A stretch of DNA of 64,000 bases, from positions 44,412 through 108,411 of the forward strand of contig CAWBMV010000030.1 in assembly GCA_963789955.1 (NCBI GenBank). Direction: 5' to 3'. The stretch is from an uncultured Candidatus Rokubacteria bacterium (GTDB taxonomy: Bacteria > Methylomirabilota > Methylomirabilia > Rokubacteriales > CSP1-6). The notes under the pieces are model-generated. The model worked only from the letters and a program-made list of their open reading frames with translations. It had not been told where the DNA came from and did no database searches. Position 1 is the first letter of the stretch. Every line of letters starts with the position of its first letter. Position numbers and translations under genes: made by a program. Shown piece after piece: positions 15,404 to 64,000 of this stretch.

Positions 15404-16551
15404 CGCCGTCCGGTTCCCCGGCCGTGATGCTCGTCGCCGGCGAAGCCTCCGGTGACCTGCACGGCGCCGTGCTGTGCCGCGCGCTCCGCGGGCTCGACCC
15501 GGGTTGCCGGCTCTTCGGTATGGGCGGGATGCGCATGGCGGCGGAGGGAATGAAGCTCATGGTGGACGTCACCACCAAGGCCGTGGTTGGCGGCAGCGAG
15601 GCGCTCGGTCAGGTGCCGCGACTGTACCGAGCCTACCGTGAGCTTCGCGCGGTGCTCGAGAGCGTCGACCGGCCCGCGGTCCTCGTGCTGATCGACTTCC
15701 CGGAGTTCAATCTGCGCCTGGCCCGCGCCGCTCGGAAGGCGCAGGTTCCGGTCGTGTATTTCATTCCGCCCCAGGTGTGGGCCTGGCGCGGCGGCCGCGT
15801 GAAAACGATCCGGCGATTCGTCTCGCTCGTGCTCGCGGTATTTCCGTTCGAGGCCGCGCTCTACCGCCGGGCCGGAGTGCCCGTGGAGTTCGTCGGCCAT
15901 CCGCTCCTCGATCAGCTGCAGGCGCCGCCGACGCGTGGGACCGCGCGCGAGCAGCTCGGGATCGACGACCGGGCGGCCGTGGTCGCGCTCTTGCCGGGCA
16001 GCCGTCATCAGGAGGTCGTCCGCGTGCTGCCGGCGATGCGAGACGCCGCCACGGAAATTCTGCGGACGGTGCCCGGGACCCGGTTCGTGCTCGGCCTGGC
16101 TCCGACGATCGAGCGAGACCTGGTCGTGCAGCATCTTGCCGGCGGTCCGCCCGTGGAGATCGTCGAAGGCCAGACGCACGCCGTCATCCGGGCGGCCGAC
16201 GTGGGGCTCGTCACCTCGGGCACCGTCACGCTCGAGACGGCGCTCCTCGGCACGCCAATGGTCGTCTGCTATCGTCTCTCGTTCGTGAGCGAGCTGCTCG
16301 CTCGGCTGGTGCTGCGCGTCCCGTGGGTCAGCCTCGCCAACCTCACGCTCGGACGCGCCGTCGTTCCGGAGCTCTATCGGCGGACGACAACCGGCGAGCG
16401 CCTCGCGCGCGAGGCGCTGCGGCTCTTGACCGACGCCGGCGCCCGCGAAGCGCAGCGCGCCGCGTTCAGCGAGCTCGCCGGCCAGCTCGGCGAGCCGGGC
16501 GTGGGAGCGCGCGCGGCGCGGCTCGTGCTCGCGCAGGCGGGTGCGGCGTGA
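15400..16551 (+). CDS. lpxB: Lipid-A-disaccharide synthase
   Basis: VAGEASGDLHG, IDFPEFNL, PPQVWAWR, LLPGSR, SGTVTLE. Confidence 0.95.
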   Translation: MTPSGSPAVMLVAGEASGDLHGAVLCRALRGLDPGCRLFGMGGMRMAAEGMKLMVDVTTKAVVGGSEALGQVPRLYRAYRELRAVLESVDRPAVLVLIDFPEFNLRLARAARKAQVPVVYFIPPQVWAWRGGRVKTIRRFVSLVLAVFPFEAALYRRAGVPVEFVGHPLLDQLQAPPTRGTAREQLGIDDRAAVVALLPGSRHQEVVRVLPAMRDAATEILRTVPGTRFVLGLAPTIERDLVVQHLAGGPPVEIVEGQTHAVIRAADVGLVTSGTVTLETALLGTPMVVCYRLSFVSELLARLVLRVPWVSLANLTLGRAVVPELYRRTTTGERLAREALRLLTDAGAREAQRAAFSELAGQLGEPGVGARAARLVLAQAGAA

Positions 16552-16576
16552 TCGTGTCGCGCCGCCGGAGCGCCTG

Positions 16577-55096: not shown

Positions 55097-55856
55097 TTGC
55101 TCGTGGCGCTGGGGCCCGCGCTGGCGTTCACTGAGCCGGTCGCGGGGCCGCGCACGCCGCAGCGGGTGTACGAGGTGAAGCCGGGCGACACGCTGACCTC
55201 GCTCGCGAAGCGCTACGGCGTCAGCGTCGCCACCCTCGTGAAGCTGAACAAGCTGCCCAGCGTCAACGCCCAGTTGAAGGTCGGCCAGCGCCTCGTCATT
55301 CCCGGCTCGGACGCGCCCGCGACGACCGCGCACCGGACCGGCCCGACTCACCCGGTCGGGAGCGCGCCGACACGCACCGTCGCCGCGACGAACTCTCAGG
55401 CGCCCGTCAGGCTTGCGCTGGCGGTGCCCGACTTCGACAGCGATGCGCTGCCGCTCGGCTGGCCCGCCGAAGGCCCGGTGGTCTCGGCCTTTGGCCATCG
55501 CCGGAGCGGCTGGCACGGCGGGATCGACATCAAGGCGCCGCTCGGGACACCCGTGCAGGCCGCCGCCGCCGGTGTCGTCGTCACGTCCGGGGTCGAGACG
55601 CGGTACGGTCTCGTGGTGAAGATCGAGCACAAGGCAGGCTTCATGACCGTCTATGCCCACAACGACGTGAACCTGGTCGAGGTCGGCGACCGGGTGGACG
55701 CGGGCGATCTGATCGCGCTCGTCGGCAACACCGGCCGCGCGACGACCTACCACGTACACTTCGAGGTTCGCCGCGACGGGCTTGCGTACAATCCGCTCTA
55801 CCTGCTGCCGATGCCGCCACGGATCGCGCAGATCGACGAGACCACGCAGAGGCCGC

Positions 55857-55864
<8 letters not shown>
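55097..55864 (+). CDS. LysM + M23 peptidase (NlpD-like); true start possibly 55042/55057 via a +1 error near 55080
   Basis: YEVKPGDTL LysM; HGGID, YAHN, HVHFE M23 motifs; upstream of rpoS. Confidence 0.85.
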
Positions 55865-56775
<911 letters not shown>

Positions 56776-56794
56776 CCACGACGGAGGATTCGCG

Positions 56795-57955
56795 ATGAAG
56801 AACGGCTTCCGGGTGCTCGACAGCGATCTTCATACGATGGAGCCGGACGGCCTCTGGGAGACGTATCTCGAGGAGCCGTTCCGGAAGTTCGCGCCCTCCT
56901 TCGTGCGCCGGACGGAGAACGCGTCGAATCAGCCCGTGATCCGGATCGGCGCGCTCGAGATCGGCGAGATGTCGATGCGGCCGCAGAGCGCCCTGGTCGG
57001 CAAGGACCTCCAGCGCCGCGCCTTTGCCCGACACCCGCACTACGAGATCGCCCACGCGCGCGGCTACGACTCCGAGTCGCACGTGGCCGCGATGGATATC
57101 GAGGGCATCGACGTCGCGGTCATCTACGGCACGCGCGGCCGCCAGGTGCAGATGCACGACGAGCTCGATCCCGAGGTGGCCGCGGCGCTGGCCCGGGCCC
57201 ACAACAACTGGACGCGCGACTTCTGCGCCTACAAGCCCGACCGGCTGAAGTTCGCCGCGCAGATTTCCTTCCACGATGTCGACCTGGCCATCCGCGAAGC
57301 CCGGCGGGCGGTGCGCGAGCTGGGTGCGGTCGCCGTGATCGGGAACCCGAATCCGGTCCGCGGACGCCACATTCACGATCCGGAATTCGAGCCGCTCTGG
57401 ACGGCGATCGAGGAGCTCGAGGTGCCCGTCGGCTTCCACCCGACCGGGCAGGCCTCGCTCCGTGACGACATCGCGCGGCGCTATCTCGATCATCCGAACG
57501 GGCGCGTCATCGGCGCGGCCGCGCGCAACCCGATGGAGCTGATGCTCGCCTTCGCCAGCTTCGCGGCCGGCGGGGTGCTCGAGCGGCACCCTCGGCTGCG
57601 CTGCGCCTTCCTCGAGGGCACCTGCGGCTGGCTTCCCTGGTGGCTCTGGCGTCTGGACGAGGCCTGGGAGAAGTTCGGGCCGGGCTCGGAGGTGCAGATC
57701 TCGCAGCTCCCGAGCCAGTACTTCTTCCGGCAGTGCTACGTGGCGACCGACGCCGACGAGAAGGTGCTCCGGCAGGTGGTCGAGGCGGTCGGCGACGACA
57801 ACATCGTCGTCTCGACCGACTACCCGCACTCGGACGGGCTCTTCCCCCACGCGATCGAGGAGTTCGTGGCGCTGGACGGCGTGAGCGACAAGACCAAGGC
57901 CAAGATCCTCTGGGACAACTGTGCGCGACTCTACAAGCTGAACGGCGCCCGCTGA
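56795..57955 (+). CDS. Amidohydrolase_2-family protein
   Basis: [47 protein letters not shown]. Confidence 0.85.
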
Positions 57956-59435: not shown

Positions 59436-59512
59436 GCCCCCGTAGCTCAGGTGGATAGAGCAGCAGTTTCCTAAACTGCGTGCCGGGTGTTCGAGTCACC
59501 CCGGGGGCACCA
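59436..59512 (+). tRNA. tRNA-Arg(CCT)
   Basis: GCCCCCG acceptor stem, anticodon arm GCAGT-TTCCTAA-ACTGC, T-arm GGGTG-TTCGAGT-CACCC, CCA. Confidence 0.96.
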
Positions 59513-61112
59513 CACCCACTACACACGGCAAGCCCTCGAAAAGTTGGCCATACGTGGCCTGGCCCTCGACCTGGTACCAGCGCCCCGCGTCGGTGACGTG
59601 CGGCGTGAGCTTCAGGCGCCCCACCAGGAGTCGGCGGAGGATCTGGCGCGCGACCTCGGGCTCACGCCCGATCAGCTCCTGCCATTCGACGAGCCGCCGA
59701 CGGATCTCGTCTCGCAGTGAGTCGTCCCACGCCGGCGCCTTCGCTAGCCCCTCGAGATGCTCGAGCTGGGCGAGCACGTCCGCCCGCCGCTGCTCCGTGT
59801 GCTTGATCTCCGCCACGAGGGAGACGAGCGGACCGCCGAGCCGGATGGCCTCCGTGAACCGCGCGAGCTCGTCCTGGAGCCGCGTGGCTTCCGCCGTGAG
59901 CCGGTCTCGACGTTCGGCGTAGACGTCGGCCTCGCTGGCGTAGAGCTCGATCGCGCGGGTGATCACGTCCTCGACGATCTCGGGCGTCAGGACGTACTTC
60001 CGGATCGTCTCGACGACGACGCGATCGAGTTCCGAGACGGTCAGCGAGAGGCGGTTCCCACAGGCGCCGTTCACCCGGGCGTTGTTGCAGGTGAAGTAGA
60101 TCTTCGGACGTCCCCGCCGGCCGGTGCGGCGAATCGCGTGCATCGCGCCGCCACACGTGCCGCAGACCACAAACCCGCTGAGGAGGTGACGGGCTTCGAT
60201 GCCAGCCTCGGGGCGGCCCCACAACGCCCCACCGGTGCGACGGAGGTAGGTCTGCCGCGTGCGATCTAGGCGAGTGTGCGCCGCCTTCCAGAGGTCCTCG
60301 TCGACGATGCGGAGCCGGGGATCCTCGCGGATGATCCAGGCGCTCTCGGGCGCGGCGATCTTGAACTTGCGCCCCTTGCGGTAGTCCCACGTCGTCTTGC
60401 CGTAGACGACGCGCCCCTGGTAGAGGTCGCGGAACACCATCTCGCGCACCCCCGACATGGCCCAGCAGCGCCCACGCGGGCAGGGGACGGCGTCGGCGTT
60501 CAACCCCTTCGCGATCAGCGCGAAGCCGCGCCCCTGCGCGATCTCCGCGAAGATGCGGCAGATGATCGCGGCCTCGGCGGGGATGATCTCGCGCTCGACA
60601 TGGTCGCCCGTGCGGACGTTCTTGTAGCCGTAGCAGAGGCCGCCGGCCACGTGCCCGCGCTGCGCCTTGCTCCTCAGCGCTTCGCGAGTCCGCGACTGGG
60701 CGGCCTCGCGCTCGGCGGCCGCGAAGGTCGCCTTCATGGAGAGCATCCCGCGCGTCAACGCCGTGCGCGTATCGACGCGGCTCCGGTCGGCGTAGTACCA
60801 GATCTCCACGCCGCAGTCCTCGAGGGCGTAGATGAATCCGGGGCCCTCGCGGTCGTCACGCGAGAGGCGGTCGTAGTCGCGGACGATGACGGCCGAGAAC
60901 TTGCCCTCGGACGCCGCCGCCAGCAGGCGCGCGCGGTTCACTAGCTTGGAGGCGACCGCGCCTGAGATCCCGTCGTCGACGTACTCCTCGGCGACGGTCC
61001 AGCCGCGCTCGTCGGCGAAGGCTCGCGCGAGGGCGAGCTGGCGGGTGACGCTCTTGGCGTCGTCGCTCACGTCCTGCTCGGTGGATTTTCTCGCGTAAAC
61101 CGCGCAGATCAT
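59496..61112 (-). CDS. Large serine recombinase (integrase)
   Basis: VYARKST catalytic Ser, DRLSR, recombinase domain (YGY), Zn ribbon LLSGFVVCGTCG...C...C, coiled coil; AAAGGAGA RBS. Confidence 0.93.
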   Translation of the reverse strand: MICAVYARKSTEQDVSDDAKSVTRQLALARAFADERGWTVAEEYVDDGISGAVASKLVNRARLLAAASEGKFSAVIVRDYDRLSRDDREGPGFIYALEDCGVEIWYYADRSRVDTRTALTRGMLSMKATFAAAEREAAQSRTREALRSKAQRGHVAGGLCYGYKNVRTGDHVEREIIPAEAAIICRIFAEIAQGRGFALIAKGLNADAVPCPRGRCWAMSGVREMVFRDLYQGRVVYGKTTWDYRKGRKFKIAAPESAWIIREDPRLRIVDEDLWKAAHTRLDRTRQTYLRRTGGALWGRPEAGIEARHLLSGFVVCGTCGGAMHAIRRTGRRGRPKIYFTCNNARVNGACGNRLSLTVSELDRVVVETIRKYVLTPEIVEDVITRAIELYASEADVYAERRDRLTAEATRLQDELARFTEAIRLGGPLVSLVAEIKHTEQRRADVLAQLEHLEGLAKAPAWDDSLRDEIRRRLVEWQELIGREPEVARQILRRLLVGRLKLTPHVTDAGRWYQVEGQATYGQLFEGLPCVVGVVPPG

Positions 61113-61132
61113 TCCGCGTCTCCTTTCTACTT

Positions 61133-61627
61133 CTAGGGTCGGTCGCTCAGGTCGAGGTTGAGACCGGCGGCCACTTTGGACATATGACGAATGGCCTCCC
61201 AGACGACAGCGTGCGACTCGGATGCCTCAACGTCGTTAACCGATTGACCCTTGTGGGCTACGGCATGGCGGCGAGTCACATGGTCTTTCAGTCGCGACCA
61301 GAACGGTGCCTGGGCGATTGTGGTGTCTCCCGTCACGGCCTCGTACAACTCTCTGATCTCCCGAGTTGTGAGGATGTACGGTCGCCGAAGTGAGCCGATC
61401 CAGTCGCTGAGAGAACCGACGTTACGCTGATCGAGCGCACGGGCGATGATGCGCTGCGTGCATACTTCGAGGGCGGTCTCAGTAACGAGTACCGCCGCGC
61501 CGTAGTGGCGGCCTTTCAGAAGTCCATTCGCCGAATGCATCAAGGCCTCAAACAGCGGGCTGATTTTGACTATTGGGGCATCGGACGCGAATACCGCGTC
61601 CCCTGTGTTGGGCCGCAGAGCCATCAC
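61133..61627 (-). CDS. HEPN-like domain protein
   Basis: Helical protein with YGAAVLVTETALE helix and RHAVAH (R-x4-H) motif; GAGGGGGG RBS. Confidence 0.65.
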   Translation of the reverse strand: MMALRPNTGDAVFASDAPIVKISPLFEALMHSANGLLKGRHYGAAVLVTETALEVCTQRIIARALDQRNVGSLSDWIGSLRRPYILTTREIRELYEAVTGDTTIAQAPFWSRLKDHVTRRHAVAHKGQSVNDVEASESHAVVWEAIRHMSKVAAGLNLDLSDRP

Positions 61628-61664
61628 GCGCCCCCCTCGAGGTATCGGGCGTAGACCACGGCTA

Positions 61665-61970
61665 TCATCGGGAATCCCCCTGGTGGCGGTCGGGTTTGCG
61701 AATGGCGAGCAGCAGGATCCCGAAGGCGGTCACGCCGGCACCGGTGATGACACCAGGCCAATGGGTGAGGCCCTGCCGCTCATCATGGAGAATTGCGGCT
61801 CGCCGAGCTTCGATCGAATAGGGTATGAACACGGCTGGCCCCAGCGCGCTGCTCTCGCGCTGGATCGCGCCGTCACGGTAGGGCACGTAGGCGACCGCGC
61901 CGACAGCGATCACGATGCCAGCGAGGACACACGCCCACGCGAACATGCGAATAGGATCCCGGCGCTTCAC
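61665..61970 (-). CDS. Small two-TM hypothetical protein
   Basis: Hydrophobic segments FAWACVLAGIVIAVGAVAYV and GVITGAGVTAFGILLLAI; start uncertain (61970/61946). Confidence 0.5.
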   Translation of the reverse strand: MKRRDPIRMFAWACVLAGIVIAVGAVAYVPYRDGAIQRESSALGPAVFIPYSIEARRAAILHDERQGLTHWPGVITGAGVTAFGILLLAIRKPDRHQGDSR

Positions 61971-62066
61971 GTTCCGAGCCCCTCGAGCAGCACGCGCAGC
62001 CAGGCCTCGGCCCATGTCATGCCGGGCGGGCGTACTTCACACGGAAGGGCTTCGTTGTAGTGGCCA

Positions 62067-62765
62067 TTATTTGCCTCGTTTGGAAACAGCAGTGGGAAAC
62101 CCGAGAAGGAGAAAGCGACTGGTCGCGTATGTGGAGATGGCGACTCCCAGCCCAATCAGTATCAAGTAAGGTTTGAGAGGAGGGCCTGTAGGCACGAAGC
62201 GCCATGCCATCGCCAATACGACAAGCCAAGATATGGCAACCTGAATTTTGCCACGCAACTTCGGCCTTACCCTTAGGTTCCCGATGCGCAGACTTTTGAA
62301 GTTGTCAATCGTTTGTGCTGTAAGAGCCCCGACCATTAGTGGCAATAAGAAGACCGTCGGCAGGTAGAGGGCGATTATGTCGGCGATCTGTGTTTCTAAC
62401 GACGTCTGGACGATATACAGCACTACTCCTGCCGTGCCAATTAAGTGCGCCAACGCAAAATCAATCCGCGACGGTCGACGAGCTCGGCGACCTTCATCCG
62501 CCTGGTACCACTCAACCGTAAATCGGGACCCGAAGTAGATGACCAGCGCAATCAGGACATAGGGGACCGCTTGCGGGCTCTTGAACGTGACTTTAAGACT
62601 TTCAATCGGCTTGTCATCTACATCGATTCCGATGAGTGCCCATGCGAGAAGTAGAGCGCTGCTCAGGCTATACGCCTTTCGCGCTTTGTCATAGGACGCG
62701 CTGAATTCAGGGGGCGACTTCTGCCCGGCCTCCGCCAGCCTAAACTCTTCTTCCTCAGCCATCAC
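62067..62765 (-). CDS. Multi-pass membrane hypothetical protein, AT-richer than host
   Basis: 232 aa, about six hydrophobic segments; AGGAGG RBS; GTGA overlap with the upstream gene. Confidence 0.7.
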   Translation of the reverse strand: MMAEEEEFRLAEAGQKSPPEFSASYDKARKAYSLSSALLLAWALIGIDVDDKPIESLKVTFKSPQAVPYVLIALVIYFGSRFTVEWYQADEGRRARRPSRIDFALAHLIGTAGVVLYIVQTSLETQIADIIALYLPTVFLLPLMVGALTAQTIDNFKSLRIGNLRVRPKLRGKIQVAISWLVVLAMAWRFVPTGPPLKPYLILIGLGVAISTYATSRFLLLGFPTAVSKRGK

Positions 62766-63017
62766 GCGCCTCCTGTTCGTTTCACCGCGACGCGCTCATG
62801 CGCGCCCCAAATGCGCATCATCGTGACGTCGGACGCGACTCTCTTGACGCGGACGTTCGCGGTTTTCCCGCCCCGCGGTCGTGTACGGCCGCGCGACGAC
62901 TTCATATGTGCCGGTTTCGTCCGTGAGTCGGTCGCCGATCCGAAGCTGCATCGGAAGCACCTTGGTCGGGGCCGGTCCTTCCGGCTCACGCTTCTTCTCG
63001 GGCTTCGGTTTAGCCAT
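62762..63017 (-). CDS. Small beta-rich hypothetical protein (apparent +1 frameshift ~62870)
   Basis: MAKPKPEKK...LRIGDRLTDETGTYEVVARPYTTAG joins GKTANVRVKRV...WGAHERVAVKR in the next frame. Confidence 0.6.
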
Positions 63018-63026
63018 CGGCTCGCC

Positions 63027-63245
63027 TCAGCGGCCCCGAATCCGCAGGATCACGACTCCGATTGCAAGAAGGCCAGCCGCTATGATGGCGAACGGAATGA
63101 AGCCCGGAAACTCTTCCCGGAAGAATGCCTCCACGTTGCTCTCCCGACGGCGACGCCTTCGTCTGGGTCTCACAAAGTGACCAGCGAGCAGACCAGCCAG
63201 CAGCGAGATACCTGCGCCAAAGATGCAGAGCCAGCCGATCTTCAC
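63027..63245 (-). CDS. Small two-TM hypothetical protein
   Basis: 72 aa with two hydrophobic segments flanking an Arg run. Confidence 0.45.
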   Translation of the reverse strand: MKIGWLCIFGAGISLLAGLLAGHFVRPRRRRRRRESNVEAFFREEFPGFIPFAIIAAGLLAIGVVILRIRGR

Positions 63246-63329
63246 ATCGCTGCTTTCTACTCCACACCGCCGGCGTATCTGTCCGGCGACATTGCTCGCG
63301 CCCGGAGTGCTTTGCTATCGTCGGAGGCC

Positions 63330-63554
63330 ATGGACCCCCACGAGCGCGCGACGAGCGTGTGGTACCGCGTGGCCGGGCTGCTGCGTCGGAAAGAGCTCGC
63401 GATCGAGATCGTTGAGGCCGAGATCCGCTCGGCGCCGTACGAGATATTGCTCGAGGCCGCGAAGCTGGTGTTGAGCGGCGAGCCGATCGAAATCGCGAGA
63501 CAGCTCCGTGACCGCGCGGAACGGACGATCAGACCGAAACCGGACCGGCATTGA
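63330..63554 (+). CDS. Small hypothetical protein
   Basis: MDPHERATSVWYRVAG...; GGAGG before the ATG and TTGCTC-N18-TATCGT promoter-like boxes. Confidence 0.5.
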   Translation: MDPHERATSVWYRVAGLLRRKELAIEIVEAEIRSAPYEILLEAAKLVLSGEPIEIARQLRDRAERTIRPKPDRH

Positions 63555-63590
63555 ACCGGCGTGCGGCAAAGCCAGTCGCGGTGCGCTGCC

Positions 63591-63917
63591 ATGCCTGACG
63601 AGCCACTCGGCGAGAAAGTCCGCGCAGCAATCAGTAGCGGCAGGCTGCCATCGACCAACCCGAGCCGCATGTTCAACGGCCCAGGCGCAGGAGCGAGGTG
63701 CGCGGTATGCGGCGATCCGGTGCAGCCTAGTGAAATGGAGTTCGAGCTCGAATTCCAACGTGTCCCTGTGTTCAAGGGGAAGTCACTCATAGATAGACTC
63801 AAGCGACTCAACGCGAAGCCGGAGATCCGCCGCTACCACCTGCACCAGCGTTGCTTCACGGTTTGGGAGTTCGAGCGCATCAAGGCAGGAGAGCCCGAGC
63901 GCCGCCCGTGGACCTAG
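63591..63917 (+). CDS. Small putative Zn-binding protein (CxxC...HxxC)
   Basis: GPGAGARCAVCGDP...HLHQRCFTVWE. Confidence 0.6.
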   Translation: MPDEPLGEKVRAAISSGRLPSTNPSRMFNGPGAGARCAVCGDPVQPSEMEFELEFQRVPVFKGKSLIDRLKRLNAKPEIRRYHLHQRCFTVWEFERIKAGEPERRPWT

Positions 63918-64000
63918 CACTCGCCTCGTCCCGACAACGATGGAGCCGTTGGCGAAGTCGGTCAGGATCAGAGCGCCAGCGCCGCTGCAGCATAGCGGCT

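Follow-up and report, generated by a model that had tools for sequence, protein, structure and literature searches.

Two of the closest described systems use tyrosine integrases, i.e., Mx8, whose attB is tRNA-Asp, and the mycobacteriophage BPs. According to the available parts of the sources cited here, attP of Mx8 is located inside int, and integration swaps 112 C-terminal residues for 13 with a fall in activity (PMC6070905, PMC4701971). In BPs, Brujita and Charlie, attP is located in the repressor gene, whose product loses its C-terminal proteolysis tag when the phage integrates; the BPs integrase is also tagged but keeps its tag in both states (PMC3694055). Among serine recombinases, DsiB of the Dehalococcoides ssrA islands (about 540 aa) is convergent on the 3' end of an RNA gene, and its gene always overlaps attL and takes its stop codon from outside the island; McMurdie et al. 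2011 suggested a regulatory role for this overlap (PMC3146451). The serine integrases of the streptococcal rumA ICEs have att inside the integrase gene and different C-termini in the excised and integrated states (PMC4701971). The classical large serine integrases (LI/A118, phiC31, Bxb1, SPbeta SprA) share a domain order with zinc ribbon and coiled coil; their attP is symmetric about a central dinucleotide, with half-sites of about 25 bp and outer motifs, the zinc-ribbon motif being at positions 16-24 (PMC3783163).

The locus described here works like DsiB, like the rumA ICE and Mx8 integrases and like BPs, and is a member of none of these systems. The window, i.e., the whole stretch of 64,000 nucleotides that was analysed, comes from an uncultured Candidatus Rokubacteria bacterium (genome G000) and its end is the end of contig C30. 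The initial annotation had seen in it a 538-aa recombinase ORF convergent on tRNA-Arg(CCT), which is exact (17 bp of overlap, protein end VVPPG; Table 1); it had also implied a layout with less precedent than DsiB, the rumA ICE integrases and Mx8 give it. The likeness with DsiB (size, convergence on an RNA gene, overlap with attL, stop codon from outside) is one of layout. DsiB targets tmRNA/ssrA and has the small serine recombinase DsiA upstream in a six-gene module, whereas the target is here tRNA-Arg(CCT) and the upstream ORF is HEPN-like; the available text on DsiB describes no crossover dinucleotide, free-form tail or degron (PMC3146451). The rumA ICE integrases differ by their protein-gene target, a reciprocal 3' exchange and the absence of a tRNA, and no degron is noted in the parts of the source at hand (PMC4701971). 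An attP inside int and a C-terminus replaced on integration, as in Mx8, are found in relatives of the window integrase and expected for the window copy; Mx8 Int differs in being a tyrosine recombinase with a large replaced part, and no degron is reported for it in the available passages (PMC6070905, PMC4701971). As in BPs, attP is inside a gene, and relatives carry the sequence signature (11/16) of a C-terminal tag that integration would remove; unlike BPs, the crossover is inside the integrase ORF and not in a repressor gene, and a serine integrase would shed its own tag-like end (PMC3694055). The domain order of the classical large serine integrases is found again, and the symmetric attP with outer motifs is seen in relatives (PMC3783163), with only 15-20% identity to the window integrase in fold alignments.

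Table 1. Features of the tRNA-Arg(CCT) locus (positions in the window; strand given where it applies).
Feature	Position	Strand	Remarks
tRNA-Arg(CCT), restored at the attL junction next to the integrase	59436..59512	+	ARAGORN call
Predicted composition of this tRNA at attL			nt 1-64 from the host; nt 65/66 as crossover dinucleotide; nt 67-76 from the element
Large serine integrase, 538 aa, integrated (attL) form	59496..61112	-	
TGA stop of the integrase, supplied by the host arm	59496..59498	-	complement of tRNA T60-C61-A62
Predicted half-site derived from attB, in host sequence: 3' strand of the anticodon stem, variable loop and T arm	59477..59500	.	from the crossover and half-sites of about 25 bp
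Predicted crossover dinucleotide CC, tRNA nt 65/66	59501..59502	.	across codons P537/G538; position as in relatives
Predicted attP-derived half-site, serving at once as tRNA nt 67-76 and as integrase codons ~530-537	59503..59526	.	arm of an inverted repeat in relatives
Part of the element in view, truncated by the end of the contig	59513..64000	.	attR and P' arm outside view
Shine-Dalgarno-like AAGGAG	61120..61125	-	7 nt upstream of the integrase ATG
164-aa cargo ORF, HEPN-like (RxxxxH motif)	61133..61627	-	directly upstream of the integrase

By its domains, its residues and its modelled fold, the protein is assigned to the large serine integrases, and it looks intact. Three Pfam domains are found: Resolvase at 4-154 (PF00239, E 2.9e-24), Recombinase at 178-284 (PF07508) and Zn_ribbon_recom at 310-371 (PF13408). 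In an alignment of 44 sequences R8, R82, L83 and R85 are invariant and S10 is nearly so; the zinc-ribbon cysteines C317, C320, C342 and C351 are also invariant. The AlphaFold2 model displays long helices at 395-457 and a final hairpin (strands 496-507 and 510-519), the last 10 residues being of low confidence; its top Foldseek matches are the SPbeta, Bxb1 and phiC31 integrases.

The stop codon was correctly read by the initial annotation as the complement of a TCA in the T-arm, i.e., the last T-loop base and the first two bases of the 3' T-stem. It is localized on the host side of the crossover mapped in relatives, so its loss on excision is predicted. It must be noticed that the T stem of the window tRNA-Arg contains a T52-A62 pair (59484-59500), where the common tRNA pair is G52-C62; the usual antisense G-F-E-P frame thus becomes G-stop. 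A promoter and terminator scan gave no above-chance signal relevant to antisense transcription of the tRNA; the geometry makes such transcription through the tRNA possible.

This tRNA is the sole one with a CCT anticodon in the window genome (58 ARAGORN calls). Its sequence is letter-identical in 8 congeneric loci, none of which has an integrase homologue within 1.4 kb downstream (0/8), and two of the eight share the upstream flank of the window. The integrase gene is thus not fixed at this place (a fixed gene had been named beforehand as contrary to a switch), and the TCA that forms the stop is native. By comparison of sequences the tRNA gene is the host's own. A change in the T-stem made by the element, creating the stop, is ruled out by the same tRNA in the 8 congeners. 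Duplicates of 45-47 bp of this tRNA, beginning at the anticodon loop, exist in four congeners, hence tRNA-Arg(CCT) is also the target of other integrases. No clean empty attB was established among the congeners compared, where other islands often occupy this tRNA. Elsewhere in the window, ARAGORN also calls an 86-nt tRNA-Thr(CGT) (16486-16571, anticodon at position 39, in a region of 73% GC), which is probably spurious.

In order to localize the crossover, exact duplicates of at least 12 bp were searched upstream of 137 integrase C-termini. Sixteen loci in which the nearest duplicate is a tRNA 3' end no longer than 20 bp were picked by hand; L115 and L119 (tRNA duplicates of 25-51 bp) and the non-tRNA repeats in L210, L216, L217, L219, L238 and L265 were left out. 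The 16 complete elements span 2.4-22 kb. In relatives with both ends, the duplicated core corresponds to the last 12-22 nt of the tRNA; it starts between tRNA nt 55 and 65 in the 16 loci, at exactly 65 in four and never later. The inverted symmetry of the rebuilt attP, scored at 11-25 bp from the centre, reaches a mean of 7.7/15 at nt 65/66 vs. 3.3-5.4 at the 16 other registers, and nt 65/66 is the best register in 9 elements out of 16. The attP arm next to the tRNA pairs with the far-end arm as an inverted repeat in these relatives, which fits the attP of serine integrases with its zinc-ribbon motif at positions 16-24, as given in the available text of PMC3783163. The attB symmetry at 5-20 bp has no clear peak (the tRNA numbering is off by 3 in 6 loci). 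A tyrosine integrase inside the element was found in none of the five elements checked.

These comparisons place the crossover of the family inside the integrase ORF, where that of the window copy would also fall. The proposal of an att site inside the 3' end of the integrase gene, with a C-terminus altered by recombination, is thereby sustained, and the opposite case that had been envisaged, a crossover outside the ORF, is not what the relatives display. With a crossover at nt 65/66 (P537/G538), the residues VPP would come from the element's own copy of the tRNA (nt 66-76), and only 'G-stop' from the host. The initial reading of the end VPPG from the tRNA 3' end is thereby refined: the ORF does end within the tRNA, but VPP would be encoded by the copy carried by the element. 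The host-derived part of the window ORF would be limited to the stop and to the second and third bases of codon G538.

The far end of the window element is missing. The GC content is 0.60 at 61001-64000 vs. about 0.69 in the upstream part of the window. Scans of the window genome by blastn and by pattern revealed no other copy of the 12-bp att core; three 11-bp core matches were rejected as attR, being chance matches located inside other sequence. No attP- or attR-informative junction was found in the contigs of four DNA sequencing runs (a small share). Since attR is unassembled, the tail swap is inferred for the window copy, its own tail being unseen. The 164-aa ORF upstream of the integrase has no Pfam match, resolvase included; its Atlas feature matches (0.94-0.96, one named RiboL-PSP-HEPN) are a lead only, and it is possibly a defence cargo. 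In large serine integrases attP x attB recombination is unidirectional and excision requires an RDF; none was identified in the visible 4.5 kb. Three short ORF-sized stretches, 62796-63017 (-), 63027-63245 (-) and 63330-63550, recur elsewhere in the window genome and have several copies in 13 of the 16 congeners searched; the one that was tested has no Pfam match. Outside the element, a sigma-70-like gene at 55782-56798 (+) seems to lose its frame near 56500-56572, and a 67-aa ORF (56572-56775) resembles its C-terminal region, i.e., a possible frameshift or assembly error.

The tail of the free form was rebuilt in silico from the 16 complete elements. The attP frames end in AA or VA in 11 of them (AA alone in 8), with a tail of 17-28 residues in these 11; the initial annotation had not anticipated such an end. 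The same ends are found in 1/32 of the other two frames (Fisher p=2e-6) and in 2.0% of the 163,214 stop-ended frames of the window genome. If L115 and L119 are counted as failures the rate is 11/18; three farther duplicates (tails ending in LN, VA and IA) are listed outside the 16-element count. It must be noticed that the idea of AA was taken from natural sequences before the systematic rebuilding, and that VA was added after seeing the data. For tRNA-Arg(CCT) cores, 4 of 5 tails end in AA, including L109 and L110 of the window clade; the exception is L256, an enzyme whose natural end is already AA. Among the five rebuilt tails with another end, two come from one close clade (G241, G242), and one has a strong attP symmetry (12/15).

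Among 29 tails that were selected by their ends, AA/VA just ahead of the stop is the feature that varies least, the remainder being barely alignable. Hydrophobic residues alternate at -12/-10/-8 (0.52/0.55/0.76 of the tails). The AlphaFold2 model of a natural homologue contains a strand at 563-572 (pLDDT about 70-76) after a disordered linker; the alignments with solved integrases stop at model residues 532-559, so this strand has no aligned counterpart. A separate case is L255 (G182:C7, about 699,000-709,500), a tandem array of elements of the same family: three tRNA-Glu cores of 13-14 bp are stacked, and an in-frame tail with AA, VA or IA at its end precedes each of them.

Homologues of the integrase are present in 114 of 251 genomes of the phylum (the tally includes the unpublished G076 and G034, which enter no other result). 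A search of genome contigs with the single protein retrieved 3 distant loci only, and cultured phage records contain only distant relatives (best rows at 22-30% identity). Among the matches listed, query included, 60/120 homologues end in PPG, APG or PRG; also among these matches, RG[DE]SNTR (same tRNA, other frame) is found in 13/120, GFEP in 4/120, AA or VA ends in 3/120 and other ends in 40/120. Of the 123 distinct closed C-termini in the loci retrieved, 45 overlap a tRNA called by ARAGORN. These ends and this proportion indicate that the overlap of integrase and tRNA is not due to chance. The anticodons seen in these loci are Arg-CCT, Glu-TTC, Glu-CTC, Leu, Ser and Met. AA/VA is absent from the 45 natural termini that overlap a tRNA vs. 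17/78 without a called tRNA; for viral contigs, 9/12 of the termini without a called tRNA end in AA/VA. The AA-ended natural contigs may be free forms or tandem junctions. Natural long-tailed homologues diverge directly after VPP, and the integrated tails vary freely in length and frame. In the family tree (FastTree, 87 rows) the window enzyme belongs to a seven-row Arg-CCT clade (SH-like 100) with the complete elements L109 and L110.

Several members of the family deserve mention on their own. The window genome contains a paralogue, L004 (G000:C34:1262273-1263939, 33-37% identical), which ends antisense in tRNA-Glu(CTC), beside tRNA-Gln(CTG), and whose attR is likewise unassembled. A second tRNA frame (W-C-P-R-G-D-S-N or P-N-G-I-R-T-R-V) is used by L136, L006, L273, L162 and L196; L196 (tRNA-Ser) still rebuilds to a VA-ended tail, i.e., frame and tail co-vary. 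L107 (G112:C21:76827-94190) is a complete 17.3-kb tRNA-Arg element with a prim-pol, a terminase-like ATPase and an HTH_17 protein; it would be phage- or satellite-like, with the HTH_17 protein as candidate RDF, and on the host side a tyrosine recombinase match is localized immediately upstream of the tRNA. In G181, islands with tyrosine and serine integrases (L086, L091 and L081, G181:C10:22888-39688) are stacked at one tRNA-Glu, the displaced fragments being long (tyrosine) vs. short (serine).

A C-terminal AA is a signal for ClpXP. The tmRNA tag of the host ends in LALAA, as in all the genomes in which a tmRNA was found (4/4, i.e., the host and three relatives); none was found in the fourth relative searched. 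The host tmRNA is on a different contig from the window. ClpP is present in the host with a Clp-ATPase gene 1 kb downstream, presumably ClpX.

The following mechanism is proposed for the element whose attL the window would contain: a large serine integrase has its crossover at tRNA nt 65/66 and its attP within its own last codons. (i) attP would carry tRNA nt 66-76, as shown in relatives, so that integration restores the tRNA exactly. (ii) As rebuilt in relatives, the ORF of the free circle would extend about 17-28 codons beyond VPP, reaching into the far arm, most often with AA/VA as its end, and the integrated ORF would end one codon after VPP at the antisense TGA of the tRNA. (iii) The AA/VA end would be an ssrA-like ClpXP degron. 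The free element would then produce a short-lived integrase, tying integration to the protease load of the host and limiting re-integration after excision; the integrated element would produce a stable integrase, restrained by the usual RDF requirement. A further effect, of a structural kind, may come from the stretch of the tail that forms a strand. The exchange of the C-terminus is right for the family and very probably for the window copy. Control led by a degron, i.e., a tag on the free-form integrase that integration removes, is given a probability of about 60% from the sequences. A fuller version is put forward tentatively: recombination would act as a switch contained in one gene; the tail of the free form would combine the ClpXP degron with a strand docking near the RDF pocket, making that form unstable and biased to integration, and integration would yield a stable, RDF-ready and excision-competent enzyme, throughout a widespread family of tRNA-targeting serine integrases.

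The tail could also be mainly a structural or directionality module, with the AA end as secondary, forming a beta-strand on the zinc-ribbon domain or a cover of the RDF pocket. The amphipathic pattern of the 29 tails and the strand modelled for the natural tail, which no solved integrase matches, point in this direction; they count against a degron, since a simple unstructured degron has no need of a strand. The available text on SPbeta integrase has its extreme C-terminus lining the RDF pocket, with F532 needed for excision (bioRxiv 2025.01.03.631226); the integrated form of Mx8 is less active (PMC4701971, parts available), and the accessible text of McMurdie et al. proposes that DsiB is perhaps fully functional only on the circle (PMC3146451). 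On such grounds the attP form would be fully active and biased to integration, and the attL form weaker or tuned to excision, as in Mx8; this is doubtful rather than improbable, and so is the structural role as the main one. Indeed every conserved element of the integrase, including the final hairpin, precedes the crossover, and in a tail otherwise barely alignable AA/VA before the stop is the constant feature, which fits a degron with a free C-terminus. The structural role and the degron are compatible and may coexist.

If attP simply overlapped a dispensable, disordered C-terminus, any tail would suffice. The free length and frame of the integrated tails, the low confidence of the last 10 residues of the window protein and the 5/16 rebuilt tails without AA/VA agree with such a neutral swap, but this is very improbable in view of the contrast between 11/16 in frame and 1/32 out of frame over a background of 2%: a bias to AA/VA that divergent enzymes share, with four or more tRNA targets among them, indicates selection on the free-form tail. 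It is hardly credible that the integrase gene is fixed here, or carried as a passenger, and keeps a constant C-terminus, the junction being made by another enzyme that cuts in the anticodon loop. The attR outside the assembled sequence and the 45-47-bp duplicates of congeners at the same tRNA would suit such an origin; the closest relatives with both ends have instead cores of 13-17 bp and no internal tyrosine integrase, this integrase is absent at tRNA-Arg(CCT) from the 8 congeners, and the long-tailed homologues diverge right after VPP.

A literature search, confined largely to freely available main texts, retrieved no description of a serine integrase that targets a tRNA and loses a tail ending in AA. 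In the available text of Durrant et al. 2023 (PMC10083194) the term 'trna' is absent, and nothing on such shedding was found in the available parts of PMC12884075, PMC13626063 and bioRxiv 2020.12.28.424599; such integrases may figure in the TIGER/ProBord tables or in the supplements of Durrant et al.

In this family, the integrases that are mined from integrated genomes are truncated forms, hence screens may test the wrong isoform; free-form integrases may express poorly on account of their tag. The family also offers serine integrases whose attB is defined and lies in a conserved tRNA gene (Arg, Glu and Ser seen with both ends). If true, the degron-led control would provide a testable answer to the question raised by DsiB, i.e., why such genes have no stop of their own at attL. 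It would also mean that the level or the directionality of a serine integrase is under a built-in control dependent on the state of the element, as shown so far for the repressor of phage BPs and for the tyrosine integrase of Mx8.
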